NCBI GenBank assembly: GCA_944389465.1
Contig: CALXML010000002.1
Span: 22,633 to 86,632, forward strand
From: an uncultured Alphaproteobacteria bacterium
Lineage (GTDB): Bacteria > Pseudomonadota > Alphaproteobacteria > Rs-D84
Length of the DNA: 64,000 bases
Direction: 5' to 3'
Shown: one piece after another, positions 10,988-41,251 of the stretch
How the letters are laid out: every line of letters begins with the position of its first letter
Position numbering within the stretch: position 1 is the first letter of the stretch
Notes under the pieces: model-generated
The model's database searches: none
Told to the model about the DNA's origin: nothing
Seen by the model: only the letters and a program-made list of their open reading frames with translations
Position numbers and translations under genes: made by a program

Positions 10988-11054
10988 TTGATTTTATTCA
11001 GATGTGTTTAATCAGTTGATTTCAGCATTTCTTTATGTAAAACTGGGAAAGAAT

Positions 11055-11271
11055 CCAATGGGAATTGGGTTCGGGGCTGTCGTAAGCTCGGATTGTGCGG
11101 TTCAACTGCACCGTAATATTTGTATTTCGGACGGTTGTTTCGTTAAAAATATTCTCCCGACTGCATGTCGGGGAGCTGTGCGCTATACAATAGGGGCAAC
11201 CCAAAGGCGACAGAATCAATCACAATCTGATTTACGAACTCCCCGACCGTCAAATTCCTTTGGCGGTTTTT
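11055..11271 (+). promoter_or_regulatory. structured leader RNA with intrinsic terminator, copy 1 of 3 (unassigned family)
   Basis: Hairpin P0 CCAAT-GGGA-ATTGG. P1 GTCGGGGAG (11167-75) pairs with CTCCCCGAC (11239-47) and encloses P2 CTGT/ACAG, P2b GGG-GCAA-CCC and P3 AATCA/TGATT. Terminator ACCGTCA..TGGCGGT plus T run. The same plan occurs at 38729-38960 and 37251-37475(-). Confidence 0.75.
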
Positions 11272-11288
11272 AATTTGCTTAAAAAAAT

Positions 11289-14059
11289 ATGGGGTTTGGC
11301 ATGTCACAGAATACTTTGTCTTGGGAATGCAGAAAATTATTAAAATCAAAATTGTTTAACCAGAAATATTATCTGCAACATTATCCTGATGTTTTGGCGG
11401 ATAATATAAATCCAGCAGAACATTATTTAACCGTCGGTTGGACCAAGGGGTATAACCCATCACAAAAATTTAATACAAATGTATATTTGATGTTAAACCC
11501 AGATGTTAAGCAGGCGGGAATGAATCCTTTGCTGCATTATGAATTATTTGGCCGTCGCGAGAGGCGCGTTATAAATGATGCGCGTATGTCATTAATACTG
11601 GATTCAGGATTTTTTGATGTTGATTATTATATCGCACATCACCCAGATTTGGCCACAGGTTCTGGGTTTAATCCGGTGCTGCATTATTTGACAACGGGAT
11701 ACCAGCATGGCGATAACCCATCTGCAAAATTTGATAATGATGCATATTTAAGTATTTATCCAGATATATTCAGGGGCGGTATGAATCCGCTGTTACATTA
11801 TTTAATGCATGGTCAGGCCGAGGGTCGTTTTGCACCCCCAGTGACGGATATTTCACTGCCGGTGGTTGAATCAGGAACAATATTATTATTATCCCATGAA
11901 TTATCTTTAACGGGTGCACCAATTGCATTATTGAATACCGCACGTGCATTACAGCGACATAAAAAGAAATGCCTGATATTATCCCCCGTGGGTGGCAAAT
12001 TGGAACAAGAGTGCAAAAAATATGGCGTGCAATGTCTGGTTTATCCAAAATTGTTGATTCATTTAAGCCGGCAAGACGCACAAACACAACGTTTCTTTAA
12101 ACAATTTGATACAGTCTTGTTAAATACAATTGTAATGGCAAAATACGCCAGATTTATAAAACCATTGGTCCGGCGGGTTGTCCTGTGGGTGCACGAGGGC
12201 GCATTTGGATACGAAAACGAAACCAGAAACAGCAATTTAAAATCCGATTTTTCATATGTGGATACAATTTATTCAGTGGGGAATTATCTAAATCTTTTAC
12301 AGATAAATATTCAGGCAAATGTTCACAAATTCTGTTATATGGCATAGATGAGATAAAAATCCCCGCCGCACAGAAACGCAGCAATAAATTAGTTTTTGGT
12401 ATTTTTGGCACATGTGATACCAGAAAGGCCCAAGATAAATTTATCCAAGCAGTCAAAAAAATACCACAGAATATACGCGATAATTGCGAATTTAATATTG
12501 TTGGAAAATTACAAGACAATAAATACTGCAAAGTTTTAAAAAAGTTGGCGATTAATACACCTGTACACTTTCTGGGGGAATTAAGTCACCCAGAAACATT
12601 GCGTGAAATGGCACGCACAGATGTGATTTGCTGTACATCACTGGATGACCCAATGCCCATTGTTTGTACCGAGGCAATGATGCTGCACAAGCCTGTAATT
12701 TGTTCTGATAAAACCGGCACGGCCGCATTTATCCAAGATGGAAAAAACAGTTTTTTATACAAAACAGATACAGATAATTTGGCAGATATTATGATACGCG
12801 TATATAAACAACGTTCAGATTTGCATCGCATTGGTAACCGATGGAATGCAGTGTATCAAAAAAATTTCACCCCAAAAATTTTTGAACAAAATATTTTATC
12901 AGTGCTGTTCCGTGAAAAATGCACGATTGTAATGAATAATATGGAATCCAAGGATGTCCCATATTATCAGATGATGTCAGAAAAGTTTCAGACTCATATA
13001 GGTAATAATACTGGAAACATTTTAATTCCAACATATGGGGCACGCAATTTGGATTATGACTTTGAGTATTTGGCACCGTTTGACGTGAAAAATGACAGTG
13101 ATTCATATATTATATTTGCCGCCAATGTGTTAAGAAATAATGTGCAATTGAACTATGAAAAATGGTTTGAATTTCTGGGGCGTTGTAAAAAGCCGATAAA
13201 CATAATGGGATTGGGGGCACAAACAACACTGGAAGAAATGAATCCACGTAAATATGCGAACGGTTTATCATCTGAAATGGTGCGTTGGATACAAATGATT
13301 GCCGACAGATGTAATGTTGTTGGTGTGCGTGGCGAATTTACAGCAGATGTTTTAAAAAGTTTAGGTATAAAAAATGTAGATGCCGTTGGATGTCCAACTT
13401 ATTTTGTAAATGGATATGCGCAACCACAAATAATAAAGAAAAATTTGTCTGAACTGCGTAATGTTGTGTTTCACACTTGTTGGGAACCATACAGTGATTG
13501 GCACGTACAATGGAACAGGGCAGTGCTGGATAATATGTTACAATTTTCAAATCCTGCATTTGTGATACAGTCTGAATTTAAATTTTTGCCTTATTTGATT
13601 GCGAATACAGACCAATTGCAATCTTTGATGGCACTGCAAAATTCAGATATCAGTGCATCTGTTGACGCAATATGCCGGCATTTCGGACTGGATGAATATG
13701 ATGTTGTTACAAATGATAAAATCAGACATTTGTTTCATATATTTTCAGATATGAACAAATGGGCCGAATTTATCAAATCATATGATGTCGCATTTGGTTT
13801 CCGTATTCATGGAAATATTATAGCCTTAAAAAATGGTGTGCCCGCAATTGACATAGCCACAGATTCACGCGTTTATGAAATGTGCGAATTATTCAAAATA
13901 CCATATGTGCGGGTAAATCAGTTTGACAGTACAGAACTGAATTTTAATAAAATTTATGAACAGGCCGATTTTTCAGAAATGAATAAACAATATCCTGTGT
14001 TGTTACAGAACTTTATAAACTTTTTGGATAAAAATAATATCAAACATTTATATAACTGA
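11289..14059 (+). pseudogene. multidomain polysaccharide biosynthesis protein (N-terminal YPDV/NPLLHY repeats, GT4 glycosyltransferase, pyruvyl-transferase-like domain), frameshifted
   Basis: ORFs 11289-12347 and 12185-14059 continue one another (..DTIYSVG | ELSKSFTDKYSGK..) if one G is added to the GGGG run at 12278-12281. The C-terminal GCPTYF and FRIHGNIIALKNGVPAI resemble PS_pyruv_trans. Confidence 0.7.
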
Positions 14060-36614: not shown

Positions 36615-37222
36615 TCAGTTACTGTAATAACAATTTGCAGTATATGTATAATTGCCCGTGGAATCAGAACCTGTCCGACCAGCCGGTAAATAGCAATTGG
36701 TTATGGCCGTACTGCCCGCGGACGACGTGCCCCCATTTGGACACCCGATGTTCCGTTTGTGGTACTGCCGTAATATCCCGCCGCACAGCGATAACTGTAC
36801 GTTGTTTTGCATGTGGTGCTGTCCGAACATGAACGTGTTGCCAGTTGTTGGTATCCTGTGCCCGCGGCCGACCAAGATGTGTCACTTTTGCAATTTGAAC
36901 TGGTACAGGTTAATGCACACGTTTTGTATTGCAATGTGTTTGTTCCACTGCCGCAATTGACAGTGGTTGTTTTGGTCAGCATGGTATACCCGCTGGGGCA
37001 CAATATGCATGTTGTGACGCCAACCAATTCGCTTTCGCCACCAACACATGTTGCCGATGCTCTACCTGAACAATTTTGGGCCAAATTAATGACGCCCGCA
37101 TCATCCGCCGTGCATGCCATGGCGCGACATATAGTAGCACCAGATAAGGCATTTGCTGATATCGGTATGCCCCAGCATCCAATCGCCAAAATTGACGGGA
37201 TTAAATATGATGATTTTTTCAT
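36615..37222 (-). pseudogene. secreted Cys-rich protein with GCC2_GCC3/ephrin-receptor-like repeats, frameshifted
   Basis: Signal peptide MKKSSYLIPSILAIGCWGIPISANA. ORFs 36701-37267 and 36615-36875 join as ..CAAGYYGSTTNGTSG|CPNGGTSSAGSTAITNCYLPAG.. if one nt is added near the CCC run at 36744-36746. The 608-nt span is not a multiple of 3. Confidence 0.65.
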
Positions 37223-37250
37223 TTTTCCTGTTCCCTTTTTTGTTTTAGTT

Positions 37251-37475
37251 AAACAAAAAACCACCAAAACCTTGGTGGTCGGGAGTTGGAAAAATCATAG
37301 AAGTTAATGATCCGCTGGGTTTTGGCAAATGCCTGTTGTATAACCAGCACATCCCGACCCAATAAAAGTCAGGAAATGTACGTACATTGACGCACATATA
37401 AAATAACGACACGGACAACATTTCCGCACCGAACTTCTAGGGGATTTTCCAAGTCCCAAAACCAACAATCATTGG
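37251..37475 (-). promoter_or_regulatory. structured leader RNA with intrinsic terminator, copy 3 of 3 (most divergent)
   Basis: Minus strand: P0 CCAA-TGATTG-TTGG. P1 GTCGGGA (37350-58) pairs with TCCCGAC (37278-85). P2 GCTGG/CCAGC, conserved TTATACAACAGG, P2b GGC-ATTT-GCC, P3 ATCA/TGAT. Terminator CCACCAAGGTTTTGGTGG plus T6. Start codon 29 nt downstream. Confidence 0.75.
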
Positions 37476-37594
37476 TTTCGTTTGCCGGTATAGCCGGATA
37501 ATACAGGAAAAACAAGCCATAAAACATTTTACATTTTTTATAAAAAACTGCTTGCATTTATTCCAAGAACAATATAATATATGCTTTGCTCGTT

Positions 37595-37672
37595 GGGGTT
37601 GTAGCTCAGCTGGTTTAGAGCGTCTGCCTGTCACGCAGAAGGTCGCGGGTTCGAGCCCCGTCAATCCCGCCA
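37595..37672 (+). tRNA. tRNA-Asp (anticodon GUC)
   Basis: GGGGTTGTAGCTCAGCTGGTTTAGAGCGTCTGCCTGTCACGCAGAAGGTCGCGGGTTCGAGCCCCGTCAATCCCGCCA. Loop CTGTCAC, encoded CCA. Confidence 0.95.
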
Positions 37673-37680
37673 GAAATAAT

Positions 37681-37707
37681 CAGTCACCATATTGGTGGCT
37701 GTTTTTT
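37681..37707 (+). terminator. intrinsic terminator after tRNA-Asp
   Basis: CAGTCACCA-TAT-TGGTGGCTG hairpin followed by TTTTTT. Confidence 0.8.
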
Positions 37708-37793
37708 ATTTGCAAATTATACGGAATAATATTCTGTTGCTATATTTGGGCAAATTGCTATACTTATACCCGAACACAAATAAAGGGGAAAAT

Positions 37794-38276
37794 ATGAACA
37801 TTAAATCTTTTGCTTTGGTTGCGGGCGTGTTGGCGTTGGCTGCATGTGGCGATAACACACCAAACCCAGAATTGTTAAAGGGCGCAAACTTTGTTGCCGC
37901 GGGTACTGGCGCGGATATTACCCTGTCTTTTGATGCAAACGAAATGCGCGTAAATGGTCAGGTGGTAAATCTGTATAACGGTTCATACGAAGTAAATGGT
38001 GACAAAATTAAATTCAGCCCATTTGCGTCCACTATGATGATGGGCCCAATGGATGCGATGCAAACAGAACAGGATTATTTCCAGTTTATGACAACGGTTG
38101 AATCATACGATTTGTCTGATGGTCGTTTGACACTGAAAAACGCCGACGGCAAAGAAATCGTGTTTCAACAGGTTGAACCAACCACAGAGGTTATAGAGGA
38201 AACCACCGTCACAGAAGATGTTCCTGCCGATGCAGTTGCGATTCCTGTTGCATCCGAACCTGCAACCGCGGAATAA
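37794..38276 (+). CDS. META domain (HslJ-like) lipoprotein
   Basis: Lipobox VLALAACG at the internal ATG 37794 (AAAGGGGAA SD). ..ITLSFDANEMRVNGQVVNLYNGSYEVNGDKIKFSPFASTMMMGP..TEQDYF.. matches the META pattern. Confidence 0.75.
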   Translation: MNIKSFALVAGVLALAACGDNTPNPELLKGANFVAAGTGADITLSFDANEMRVNGQVVNLYNGSYEVNGDKIKFSPFASTMMMGPMDAMQTEQDYFQFMTTVESYDLSDGRLTLKNADGKEIVFQQVEPTTEVIEETTVTEDVPADAVAIPVASEPATAE

Positions 38277-38378: not shown

Positions 38379-38454
38379 GGCCCCATCGTCTAGAGGCCTA
38401 GGACACCGCCCTTTCAAGGCGAGAACACCAGTTCGAATCTGGTTGGGGCTGCCA
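38379..38454 (+). tRNA. tRNA-Glu (anticodon UUC)
   Basis: GGCCCCATCGTCTAGAGGCCTAGGACACCGCCCTTTCAAGGCGAGAACACCAGTTCGAATCTGGTTGGGGCTGCCA. Close to E. coli tRNA-Glu. G1-U72 wobble. Confidence 0.93.
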
Positions 38455-38687: not shown

Positions 38688-38717
38688 TTGATTTTAATAC
38701 ATATCTGTGTTTATAAT
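38688..38717 (+). promoter_or_regulatory. sigma70-like promoter for leader RNA copy 2
   Basis: TTGATT (38688-93), 18 nt, TATAAT (38712-17). Confidence 0.6.
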
Positions 38718-38728
38718 ATTTTTTAAAT

Positions 38729-38960
38729 CAGTGGGGACACTGGTTTGGGGCTGTCGAAAGCCTTGTATATCCGGTGCAAAACATAGCGGTTCATCGTTAT
38801 CCAGACATTCCTATGGTTTTGCGTCGTTATTTATCCCTGACTTAATACGAAGTCGGGGAGCTGTTTGTTATACAACAGGGCTTGCCCGAAAGCAACAGAA
38901 TCATTGATATACTGATTTTCGAACTCCCCGACCGCCGTGTCTTTACTGGGCGGTCTTTTT
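38729..38960 (+). promoter_or_regulatory. structured leader RNA with intrinsic terminator, copy 2 of 3
   Basis: P0 CAGTG-GGGA-CACTG. P1 GTCGGGGAG (38852-60) pairs with CTCCCCGAC (38924-32). P2 CTGT/ACAG, GTTATACAACAGG, P2b GGG-CTTG-CCC, P3 AATCA/TGATT. Terminator GACCGCC..GGCGGTC plus T5. Start codon 18 nt downstream. Confidence 0.75.
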
Positions 38961-38977
38961 GTATACAGGGGTACACC

Positions 38978-41251
38978 ATGAAATTATTCAGAAAATCAGT
39001 TAAACAAGACAGATGTGCACAATCTGCAGAAATCAATCCAGATATTCAAATAATTCAAAATTCCAAATATTTTGATAAAAAATGGTATCTTAAAACATAT
39101 CCTGATGTTGCGCGTGCCCATTGTAATCCCGCCGAACACTATTTAACATTTGGGTGGCATGAAAACAGACGCCCATCGCACAATTTTAATGGTCAAAATT
39201 ATTGGAATATATATCCAGAATCCAAAAATATGAACCCGTTATTGCACTATGAAAAAATAGGCAAGCAATCTGGTGCGCGTATTGATGGAAATTTCAAATT
39301 TACGAATTTTGAATTAATCAAAAAGACTGATAAAAATATAGTCTTTCCAAAATTTTCTGATATCAAGGTCAGTATAATTATACCTGTATACAATAATTTT
39401 TATTATACCAAGTTATGTTTGCAATCTATATTAAACAACACGCACGGTATTTCGTACGAGATTATAATTGCAGATGATAATTCAACCGATGAAACAAAAA
39501 ACATCTTGCGGCACATAAAAAACATTCGGGTTGTTCGGAACAGTGAAAATCTGCGTTTTCTGAAGAATTGTAATAATGCGGCCACATATGCCCGTGGGGA
39601 ATACCTGTGCTTTTTAAATAATGATACCCAAGTTCAACGGGATTGGCTGAAATTCTTGGTTGATGCCATAGAGAAAGATTCATCCATTGGCTTGGTTGGG
39701 TCAAAACTGATTTATCCTGATGGCACATTACAAGAGGCCGGCGGTATTATATACACTGATGCATCGGGGTGTAATTATGGTCGCAACGATGACCCAGACT
39801 GTATTTGGTATAATTATGTCAAAGAAACAGATTATATTTCTGGGGCATCTATTTTATTACGCAATAAAACGTGGAAAAAACTGGGCGGGTTTGATGAAAC
39901 TTTTGCCCCCGCGTATTACGAAGATACAGATTTAGCATTTCAAATCAGATATAAACTGGGACAGAAAGTAATGTACATTCCGCGGTCTGTGGTTGTTCAT
40001 TTTGAAGGAAAATCAAACGGCACAGATACGACCAGCGGCCAAAAAAAATATCAGGTAATAAACCGGCAAAAATTTTTCAGGAAATGGAAAAAAGAACTGT
40101 ATAAATACCATTGTCGTCCGACAAACAATAATTTTCTGGCGCGCGATAATGCCGTGTCAAAACAATCTGTTTTGGTAATTGATTGGAAAATTTTGTCTTT
40201 TACCAAAGATACAGGTTCACGTGCAACGTGGCAATATATGAAATTATTTCAAAGCCACGGTTTAAATGTAAAATTGTACCCGCACGATTGGTACATAGAA
40301 GGCGATTATTTACAGCAACATTTGGATAATGGCTTTGAAGTGATACATCAAAATTTTGCGGAATATATTAAAAATTTTGGCTCGCAGTTTGACTATGTTT
40401 ACCTGAATCGTCCGAATATTGCGCCAAAGTATATAGACTTGTTACGTAAATACACGCACGCAAAAATAATATATCAGTGTCACGATTTGCATTATCTGCG
40501 CCAATACAGAAACAGAATGTTAACCGATGAAACGACGGCGGTTGAAAAATTGCAGTCTGAAAAAGATATGGAATTTAATTTATTTTCAAAAATGGATGTA
40601 ACCTGTACATTTTCTTTTGACGAAGTGCGTGAAATTCAAAATACAGACGAAACAATAAACGCACGTCAAATACCGTTATACATATTAAATCCAGACGATA
40701 TGGCGCAATATACATACAGTGCGCGCAAACGCAAAAACATTATGTTTGTTGCCGGATTTCAACATACCCCGAACATAGACGGTGCAATTTGGTTTGTAAA
40801 AAATGTATTTCCAAAAATCAAGCAACAGTACAAAGATATAAAATTGTATTTGGTTGGCTCTAATCCGACCGATGAAATATTACAATTGGCATCAAAAGAC
40901 GTCATTGTAACAGGCTTTGTAACAGATGCTGAATTGGATAAATTTTATTCTGAAATCAGACTGGTTGTTGTGCCATTACGAACCGGTGCCGGCGTCAAAG
41001 GCAAAATAATTGAATCTGTGTTTCACAAAGTGCCCGTAATCACAACTGATATAGGCATAGAAGGCATAGATAATTCGTCCAAGCAAATAATTGTGAAAAA
41101 TTCTGCATCAGAATTTGCAAAATCTGTATGCGATTTATACACAAATTATACGGAACTGGATACAAAATCAAAAAATTCAGCACAATTTATTAAGAAATAT
41201 TTTTCTGAAAGTGCCGCAGTAAACGCACTGCGTGATTATATGAAATTATAA
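38978..41251 (+). CDS. bifunctional glycosyltransferase (N-terminal YPDV/NPLLHY repeat, GT2 domain, GT4 domain)
   Basis: Internal ATG 38978. VSIIIPVYNNFYYT..YEIIIADDNSTDET (GT2 DxD region). C-terminal ..VVPLRTGAGVKGKIIESVFHKVPVITTDIG (GT1/GT4 EX7E-type). Confidence 0.8.
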   Translation: MKLFRKSVKQDRCAQSAEINPDIQIIQNSKYFDKKWYLKTYPDVARAHCNPAEHYLTFGWHENRRPSHNFNGQNYWNIYPESKNMNPLLHYEKIGKQSGARIDGNFKFTNFELIKKTDKNIVFPKFSDIKVSIIIPVYNNFYYTKLCLQSILNNTHGISYEIIIADDNSTDETKNILRHIKNIRVVRNSENLRFLKNCNNAATYARGEYLCFLNNDTQVQRDWLKFLVDAIEKDSSIGLVGSKLIYPDGTLQEAGGIIYTDASGCNYGRNDDPDCIWYNYVKETDYISGASILLRNKTWKKLGGFDETFAPAYYEDTDLAFQIRYKLGQKVMYIPRSVVVHFEGKSNGTDTTSGQKKYQVINRQKFFRKWKKELYKYHCRPTNNNFLARDNAVSKQSVLVIDWKILSFTKDTGSRATWQYMKLFQSHGLNVKLYPHDWYIEGDYLQQHLDNGFEVIHQNFAEYIKNFGSQFDYVYLNRPNIAPKYIDLLRKYTHAKIIYQCHDLHYLRQYRNRMLTDETTAVEKLQSEKDMEFNLFSKMDVTCTFSFDEVREIQNTDETINARQIPLYILNPDDMAQYTYSARKRKNIMFVAGFQHTPNIDGAIWFVKNVFPKIKQQYKDIKLYLVGSNPTDEILQLASKDVIVTGFVTDAELDKFYSEIRLVVVPLRTGAGVKGKIIESVFHKVPVITTDIGIEGIDNSSKQIIVKNSASEFAKSVCDLYTNYTELDTKSKNSAQFIKKYFSESAAVNALRDYMKL

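Follow-up and report, generated by a model that had tools for sequence, protein, structure and literature searches.

Does the folded leader RNA of about 225 nucleotides (nt) at 37251-37479 on the minus strand, just upstream of a gene for a secreted cysteine-rich protein, regulate that gene, and if so by what means? It is the third copy of a leader that occurs exactly three times in the 64-kb stretch of alphaproteobacterial DNA analysed here (the window), with scores of 127.1, 126.7 and 92.7 bits against R1, a covariance model of the leader core described below. Its core lies at 37382-37243(-) (92.7 bits, E=1.5e-25) and scores lowest of the three, in line with the initial annotation, which had described it as the divergent copy. 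When 36900-37800 was read on the minus strand, all the helices listed in that annotation were present, and the element, which follows a promoter-like region and precedes the ribosome-binding site of the same-strand gene, ends in an intrinsic terminator, as predicted for a transcribed leader. The leader represents a new structured family with strong covariation support and a plausible mechanism of attenuation. With moderate confidence, we read copy 3 as a member of a multi-copy, cis-acting leader family which would serve as a riboswitch-like transcription attenuator for an envelope regulon.

A multi-copy leader family in Candidatus Enterousia and relatives

Homologues were collected by a pattern scan of GTDB (one genome per species) in which only the unpaired UAUACAAYAGG block and part of the stem of helix P3 were fixed and which matched at least 119 loci. 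About 80 of the loci among the matches listed are full homologues, recognised by helix P1 and the terminator, both of which are absent from the pattern, while the other loci among these matches are chance hits in unrelated taxa. The core covariance model R1 was built from 80 homologues and finds at least 95 copies in the fetched loci, including divergent ones beyond the reach of the pattern. Nearly all true homologues among the matches listed come from gut metagenome-assembled genomes labelled 'Candidatus Enterousia', uncultured Alphaproteobacteria or Rickettsiales; Enterousia has been placed in the order Rs-D84 and its genomes are mostly smaller than 1 Mb (PMC12306168). Multiple copies per genome are found (several assemblies have at least 4-7 in the fetched loci and one has at least 7), and the 95 copies are all located upstream of a gene in the same orientation. 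We found no prior description of the Enterousia leader in the literature.

The position of the leader between promoter and gene is similarly regular. Copy 2 is preceded by a promoter-like sequence, TTGATT-18-TATAAT, at 38688-38717, which ends 8 nt before the 5'-terminal hairpin P0, and in the family alignment a -10-like box is located 7-10 nt upstream of P0. The start codon follows 120-145 nt after the 5' end of P1 in nearly all copies, and this constant spacing leaves no room for a promoter between leader and gene. A protein-coding leader or leader peptide is ruled out, since stop codons break up each of the sense frames in 75-78 of 82 copies and no conserved open reading frame exists in the leader.

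Two contigs of a genome labelled Muribaculaceae (CAZJGX010000008.1, L014, and CAZJGX010000034.1, L030) carry typical leader copies and are probably mis-binned. Weaker R1 matches of 34-43 bits were obtained at L014 4649-4776, L017 585-708, L040 7383-7511, L047 51-175 and L083 7604-7733. They have a different P1/strand A (CUCCAA/UUGGAG or CCUGACC/GGUCAGG), their UAUACAA block aligns partly, and they may belong to a sister subfamily present in the same genomes.

Covariation of the core and the 5' hairpins

The core is a three-way junction composed of P1, P2/P2b with a UAUACAA internal loop, and P3. In copy 3, P1 consists of the 5' strand GGUCGGGA (37352-37359, strand B) and the 3' strand UCCCGACC (37277-37284, strand C), and is shorter than the GUCGGGGAG/CUCCCCGAC of copies 1 and 2, as was already evident from the three copies; in the model alignment two inner pairs are lost. 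The region 37314-37348 comprises P2 (GCUGG/CCAGC, strands 37348-37344 and 37318-37314), the internal loop UUAUACAACA/AAAA(C) and the P2b hairpin GGC-AUUU-GCC (37333-37324), and the P3 hairpin (GAUCAU/AUGAUU), which the initial annotation lacked, occupies 37293-37312. In the model alignment of 92 distinct sequences, 95.2% of the cells of the core are paired and 23 of the 28 pairs are changed on both sides, P1 and P3 among the covarying helices. Cells with changes on both sides number 221 compared to 48 in shuffled alignments, a value reached by none of 500 shuffles, and when the partners were slid by 1-3 columns as a control, pairing fell to 30-49%. The UAUACAAYA sequence is near-invariant in the family, in an alignment whose collecting pattern fixed these bases. 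The unpaired block GTTATACAACAGG, reported as identical in copies 2 and 3, is indeed found exactly at 37332-37344(-) and 38867-38879(+) only.

The 5' domain begins with P0, the hairpin GAAACCAA-UGAUUG-UUGGUUUU at 37458-37479 (strands AACCAA/UUGGUU, 37477-37472 and 37465-37460), whose pairs covary across 71 homologues. It is followed by the hairpin H2 (GGGA/UCCC, 37441-37457, stem 37457-37454 and 37444-37441) and by H3 (CGGUGCGG...UCCGUGUCG, 37407-37431), in which five of six pairs are compensatory in the family. In a MAFFT alignment that was not fitted to the structure, 94.0% of the cells of P0, H2 and H3 are paired and 16 of 19 pairs show compensatory changes, with none of 500 shuffles as high in percentage paired, both-side cells or covariation score. 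A further hairpin, H4 (AUGUGCGU/ACGUACAU, 37376-37397), is variable in the family; it is predicted by the minimum-free-energy fold, and homologues have a hairpin at the equivalent position. The compensatory changes that had been proposed from three copies hold in the expanded alignment for the core, the 5' hairpins and strand A (see below), and the family-wide covariation backs the helices as products of selection on RNA structure.

In copy 3 only, H3 is followed by UUAUUUUAUA and was flagged as terminator-like. This may either reflect a second, internal pause or termination point or be a coincidence of A+T-rich sequence.

Two pseudoknots between the 5' domain and the core

Two long-range pseudoknots, absent from the initial annotation, join the 5' domain to the core. 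In the first (PK1), six nucleotides of the H2 loop pair with the segment J3/1, in copy 3 UUGGAAAA (37452-37445) with UUUUCCAA (37286-37293). In the second (PK2), the eight nucleotides before H3 (the linker UAGAAGUU, 37432-37439) pair with positions 3-10 of the P3 loop (AACUUCUA, 37305-37298), and all eight pairs show compensatory changes. The strands of both pseudoknots are hypervariable between copies, yet always complementary: 16 of the 17 sequence variants of PK1 are fully complementary, and each of the 66 distinct combinations of PK2 forms at least 7 bp, with most positions showing all four Watson-Crick pair types. Cognate duplexes have energies of -6.0 (PK1) and -9.4 kcal/mol (PK2) versus -1.6 and -1.7 kcal/mol with permuted partners (z = -15 and -32 in the permutation test), the cognate strand is the best partner (median rank 0), and the cross-controls are null. 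In a gap-free alignment of the four segments, 96.9% of the cells of PK1 and PK2 are paired versus 57.6% in shuffles, with 362 versus 107 compensatory cells and a covariation score of 0.987 versus 0.212.

When four full leaders were folded by minimum free energy, the H2 region was paired in each of them with the 3' half of the core. A continuous 5'-3' duplex of 20 bp is disfavoured: the H2 3' and P3 3' strands are not complementary, and H2 and P3 themselves covary. Two interlocked pseudoknots are therefore the simplest reading. The same folds predicted a candidate helix between the H2 5' strand (GGGG) and the P1 3' strand (CCCC), whose fourth position tracks the P1 strand in some subfamilies and which is broken in other copies, so that a switch involving the H2 5' strand may exist.

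A further, weaker contact is suggested by the loops at the two ends of the leader. The P0 loop, GGGA(W) in most family members, is complementary to the terminator loop (GGGAW to WUCCC/UUCC) with -3.04 kcal/mol as opposed to -2.43 kcal/mol for permuted partners, a value not reached in 2000 permutations. Copy 3 is without GGGA(W), and both in copy 3 and in its orthologue in a related genome (locus L112) the P0-loop GGGA and the terminator-loop UCCC/UUCC are lost together. Judged from the sequences and a modest permutation signal, this joint loss fits a loop-loop contact between P0 and the terminator.

Could these elements instead be non-functional dispersed repeats, for example miniature mobile elements, with palindromes that mimic helices? 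Several copies per genome would fit such an origin. The copies are, however, strictly confined in strand and position relative to genes, they carry hundreds of pairing-preserving compensatory substitutions on one strand, including those to G-U pairs, and palindromes would not account for pseudoknot strands that vary so widely and stay complementary. Terminal inverted repeats or target duplications were not noticed, in data that were not searched specifically for them. Effectively, covariation already refutes this explanation, to which we accord a negligible probability.

Alternative pairing of P1 and the terminator

The initial annotation had also proposed that strand A (UUCCUGAC, 37368-37375) pairs with strand B, and this pairing, an anti-P1 hairpin, is borne out: across the family 95.5% of the cells of the strand A:strand B helix (A:B) are paired, in an alignment that is unbiased in this respect since strand A is unpaired in the model. 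Three pairs are compensatory, with 16 both-side cells versus 2.0 in shuffles, and none of 500 shuffles was as high in percentage paired, both-side cells or covariation score. The compensatory changes include a U-A pair in copy 3 where most copies have C-G. Because A:B and P1 both covary, the P1 5' strand is conserved in its pairing with two partners, which exclude each other.

The P1 3' strand is in turn linked to the intrinsic terminator, which in copy 3 consists of GACCACCAA-GGUU-UUGGUGGUU followed by UUUUGUUU (37251-37280) and is called terminator-like by the scanner with nine pairs and a T-run (37280-37259). The last nucleotides of the P1 3' strand, GAC(C), are common to both helices, an overlap absent from the initial annotation, and the final GAC can lengthen the terminator stem in 74 of 89 distinct copies. 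The stem is followed by a U-run in every copy (on average 5.9 of 8 nt are U), and the terminator ends 10-25 nt before the ribosome-binding site. The scanning tool called terminators for copies 1 and 3, and missed that of copy 2 because many copies have terminator loops of unusual length (8-14 nt). The A:B hairpin has a mean energy of -13.2 kcal/mol (-11.9 kcal/mol in copy 3) and the P1 duplex one of -15.7 kcal/mol, and the terminator amounts to -11.6 kcal/mol with the shared nucleotides versus -5.0 kcal/mol without them.

Might the leader be a constitutive structural element instead, i.e., a compact 5' cap which stabilises the mRNA or directs its processing, or whose C-rich strands control translation at the Shine-Dalgarno sequence, the terminator-like hairpin being merely part of the fold? 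P0 is indeed at the predicted 5' end, the complementarity of P0 and terminator loops suggests that the terminator hairpin is integrated in the tertiary fold, and strand A can pair in a generic way with the G-rich Shine-Dalgarno sequences (-8.4 kcal/mol). A cognate-specific signal is nevertheless missing both for the terminator loop and for strand A with the Shine-Dalgarno sequence (z among permuted partners +0.6 and +0.1, respectively), and for the P3 loop with positions -35 to +12 relative to the start codon (z = -0.5), whereas J3/1 is marginal (-2.1). We therefore rejected these translational-control pairings as conserved features. A structural part of the fold would also not explain the U-run directly after the hairpin in every copy, and a static fold needs no two conserved, exclusive partners for one strand. 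A constitutive element of this kind thus seems quite unlikely to us.

A putative attenuation mechanism

The leader combines a structured 5' domain, a strand whose mutually exclusive pairings connect this domain with an expression platform, and an intrinsic terminator overlapping the closing helix, i.e., the features by which riboswitches and attenuators of the terminator type are recognised. Near-balanced energies, two covarying partners and invariant unpaired junction nucleotides therefore give it the look of a ligand- or factor-dependent switch. In the attenuation model, each leader would have a promoter of its own. Since strand A leaves the polymerase only a few nucleotides ahead of the P1 5' strand, A:B would pair first as the default state. 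P2, P2b and P3 would form next, and PK2 and then PK1 would fasten the 5' domain to the P3 loop and J3/1, so that the 5' domain clamps the junction through H2 loop:J3/1 and linker:P3 loop. With the P1 3' strand left free, the full terminator would form and transcription would stop. An effector (a small molecule, an ion or a protein) might stabilise the junction such that the P1 3' strand displaces strand A and takes the GAC nucleotides; once P1 has formed, the terminator would drop to -5 kcal/mol and the polymerase could read into the gene. What we infer from the pairings and energies is which way the switch works, that an effector exists and that termination is the regulated step.

Several points weigh against this model. 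Genes of metabolism or transport, from which a metabolite might be guessed, are not what follows the leader, and the gene content suggests no clear ligand. In the sample at hand the family is confined to a single bacterial lineage, as is commoner for leaders that depend on a protein. P1 and the terminator overlap by only 2-3 nt, which covariation cannot assign to either helix, and the strict scanner calls no sigma-70-type promoter for copies 1 and 3. As the collecting pattern fixed the UAUACAAYAGG block, the invariance of this block cannot be judged from the alignment, and because part of the P3 stem was fixed likewise, the covariation of P3 rests on few divergent copies. Finally, a single static fold could just as well include the pseudoknots, with A:B only an intermediate of co-transcriptional folding.

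If the switch model is true, the leader would be an orphan riboswitch-like class of unusual size and topology, with two interlocking pseudoknots on a three-way junction. It would place genes for secreted proteins, lipoproteins, outer-membrane proteins and glycosyltransferases of uncultured gut symbionts under leader control, and would show how a host-facing surface can be coordinated with few protein regulators in small genomes. The family also offers a ready-made structural model with strong covariation.

Downstream genes and known leader systems

The gene behind copy 3 (36701-37222(-), ATG at 37222, with a purine-rich ribosome-binding site at about 37226-37236) encodes a protein of 173 amino acids with a signal-peptide-like N-terminus and many cysteines, for which no Pfam match was found. 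A homologue (37% identity, E=2e-16) is encoded behind another leader copy in a different genome (L014). Copy 1 (11051-11278(+)) is located upstream of an operon with a GT4 glycosyltransferase gene and, as second gene (12185-14059(+)), a GT1 glycosyltransferase domain fused to a polysaccharide pyruvyl-transferase domain. Copy 2 (38725-38961(+)) precedes a gene for a GT2 and GT1 domain fusion (38978-41251) and a further glycosyltransferase.

The suggestion that the element marks a broader surface or envelope regulon is supported by the family: a simple hydrophobicity rule assigns a signal-peptide- or membrane-like N-terminus to 52 of the 72 distinct proteins encoded first behind a leader, as compared to 14 of 49 other open reading frames of the window. 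Many of these first proteins look like lipoproteins, and the few Pfam matches comprise GT2 (four), GT4, outer-membrane beta-barrels (two), an OmpA-like protein, a sulfatase-family enzyme, secreted nucleases (two) and TRL. Single, short genes whose products are secreted (median 210 amino acids) make up most of the downstream genes.

In this respect the leader resembles the c-di-GMP-I (GEMM-I) riboswitches, which occur in multiple copies per genome before surface, pilus and adhesin genes. It differs from known riboswitches in being much larger, in having two pseudoknots to a separate 5' domain and in overlapping the terminator by so few nucleotides. Rfam at gathering threshold yielded only tRNAs in the window and 18 homologous loci, and a permissive Rfam 15 scan (E<=10) of 36900-37800 gave only tRNA, sRNA-Xcc1 (discussed below) and chance-level matches. 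Known riboswitch and antiterminator families (c-di-GMP-I/II, M-box, T-box, EAR and others) were accordingly rejected at this threshold.

A structured leader in front of glycosyltransferase and surface operons, with terminators to be read through, also recalls EAR of the Bacillales eps operons, HK022 put, and the RfaH/ops, UpxY and LoaP systems. These are long leaders of polysaccharide and surface operons whose terminators are read through, and EAR RNA is itself large and pseudoknotted. The Enterousia leader could by analogy direct antitermination by a protein (a NusG paralogue such as RfaH, UpxY or LoaP) or act on RNA polymerase in the manner of put or EAR, without sensing a small molecule, such that the polymerase reads through the leader and the distal terminators of long polysaccharide or surface operons. 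Two of the three window copies precede multi-gene glycosyltransferase operons, the leader shares its size and pseudoknots with EAR, its distribution among the matches listed is lineage-restricted, and its loop motifs (GGGA in P0, UAUACAA and a repeated CGUUAU) are highly conserved. On the other hand, the leader has no Rfam match apart from sRNA-Xcc1 even at E<=10, its mostly short single target genes have no need of processive antitermination, and an ops-like element or a factor was not identified. A whole-window NCBIfam scan was dominated in its summary by ABC transporters and no candidate factor gene emerged, although no systematic search for one was made. The covarying alternative pairing of A:B and P1, which is the prediction of a conformational switch, suggests such a switch rather than a constitutive modification of RNA polymerase. 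We consider antitermination of this type unlikely.

Relationship to sRNA-Xcc1

The only Rfam family with a resemblance to the leader is sRNA-Xcc1 (RF02221), an RNA first cloned from Xanthomonas campestris that occurs in integron cassettes, plasmids and prophages and was detected as an 88-nt transcript in Xanthomonas (PMC2996969). Its model matches copies 1, 2 and 3 with 38.3, 34.9 and 32.0 bits (E=0.0017 in 901 nt for copy 3), all three aligning over model positions 1-87 of 87. The gathering threshold of 53 bits is reached by no window copy and by none of the 18 homologous loci, whereas the bona fide members we fetched score 68.8-72.6 bits; by the Rfam criterion the leader is therefore not a member of RF02221. 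Reciprocally, R1, a model built from Enterousia sequences only, matches five of five sRNA-Xcc1 loci at the Rfam coordinates (40.3, 22.8, 22.6, 22.0 and 17.8 bits; E 1e-10 to 5e-4 in 14 kb). Both RNAs have a three-way junction with P1 often GUCGGG.../...CCCGAC, a P2 with an AUACAA internal loop, a small P2b hairpin, an A-rich return strand, P3 and a U-rich J3/1, and both adjoin a same-strand gene just upstream of it. On these sequence grounds the Enterousia leader is most plausibly a distant relative of sRNA-Xcc1. Unlike sRNA-Xcc1 with its ~88 nt, it adds a covarying 5' domain of ~120 nt (P0, H2, H3, H4 and strand A) and an intrinsic terminator.

The four gene-linked examples of sRNA-Xcc1 that were inspected (L121 1498-1640, L122 1482-1640, and L123 and L124 at ~1185-1330, from plasmid and Escherichia coli prophage records) are located 30-50 nt upstream of same-strand BRO-N, ORF6N or hypothetical genes, and in Xanthomonas the RNA lies upstream of symE (bioRxiv 10.1101/2025.06.18.660453). 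Hosts and genes thus differ between the families, with envelope proteins in one and BRO-N, ORF6N and SymE in the other. In each of the four gene-linked examples the P3 loop can pair without mismatch over 7-9 nt with a segment that has the Shine-Dalgarno sequence at its end, and in three of them J3/1 has a complementary segment on the 5' side of this one. Both families accordingly provide J3/1 and the P3 loop with a bipartite partner of the form 5'-[J3/1 partner]-spacer-[P3-loop partner]-3', which is found upstream in the 5' domain of the Enterousia leader and downstream in gene-linked sRNA-Xcc1; no downstream bipartite partner of the P3 loop and J3/1 was found in the start-codon region behind the Enterousia leader. 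The two families look like permuted versions of one design, in which the junction would be linked to the ribosome-binding site in sRNA-Xcc1 but to a 5' clamp and a terminator in the Enterousia leader, and they would exemplify how the same long-range partner is placed upstream in one lineage and downstream in another.

For sRNA-Xcc1, viewed for 15 years as a trans-acting, virulence-linked small RNA, these pairings suggest a role as a cis-acting leader for translational control, and not only as a trans-acting RNA: its P3 loop and J3/1 would pair with the ribosome-binding region of toxin- or antirepressor-like genes on mobile elements. We found no cis role for sRNA-Xcc1 described in the literature.

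The match to an Rfam family typed 'Gene; sRNA' raises the reverse possibility for the Enterousia elements, namely that they are free-standing trans-acting small RNA genes of ~225 nt with their own terminators, the downstream genes being expressed by leaky read-through. A promoter-like site and an intrinsic terminator of their own would agree with this. The constant position and orientation 10-25 nt before the ribosome-binding site at about 80 independent loci, without room for a second promoter, speaks against it, as do the hypervariable segments, all of which are used in PK1 and PK2 so that no variable target seed is left. Moreover, even bona fide sRNA-Xcc1 copies adjoin same-strand genes and pair with their Shine-Dalgarno regions. 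Free-standing small RNA genes appear decidedly improbable.

Beyond the attenuation model stands a more specific proposal, according to which the leader is a new class of large, doubly pseudoknotted riboswitch and a distant, permuted relative of sRNA-Xcc1. It would respond to a single signal related to the envelope or the host, be it a second messenger, a divalent cation or a cell-wall or sugar-nucleotide precursor, and thereby act as master regulator of surface proteome and glycosylation genes in sub-megabase gut Alphaproteobacteria, replacing protein transcription factors. By extension, the same sensor would serve translational control in the form of the sRNA-Xcc1 carried by plasmids, integrons and prophages. 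We regard this proposal as possible but doubtful.

A phage collection searched with an sRNA-Xcc1 sequence gave no match. One further sRNA-Xcc1 locus (L120, NZ_CP119140.1, 1485-1570 and 1696-1809) belongs to a 2.17-Mb Neisseria gonorrhoeae record that is filed as a plasmid and is evidently a chromosome; the RNA has no obvious downstream partner there, and a second weak R1 match (23.5 bits) is located 200 nt further.

Genomic surroundings of copy 3

Copies 3 and 2 are divergently oriented, and two tRNA genes (37595-37669(+) and 38379-38451(+)) lie between them. This arrangement of tRNAs and leaders is kept in the related genome at locus L112, where the tRNA genes are found at 2002-2076 and 2779-2851.

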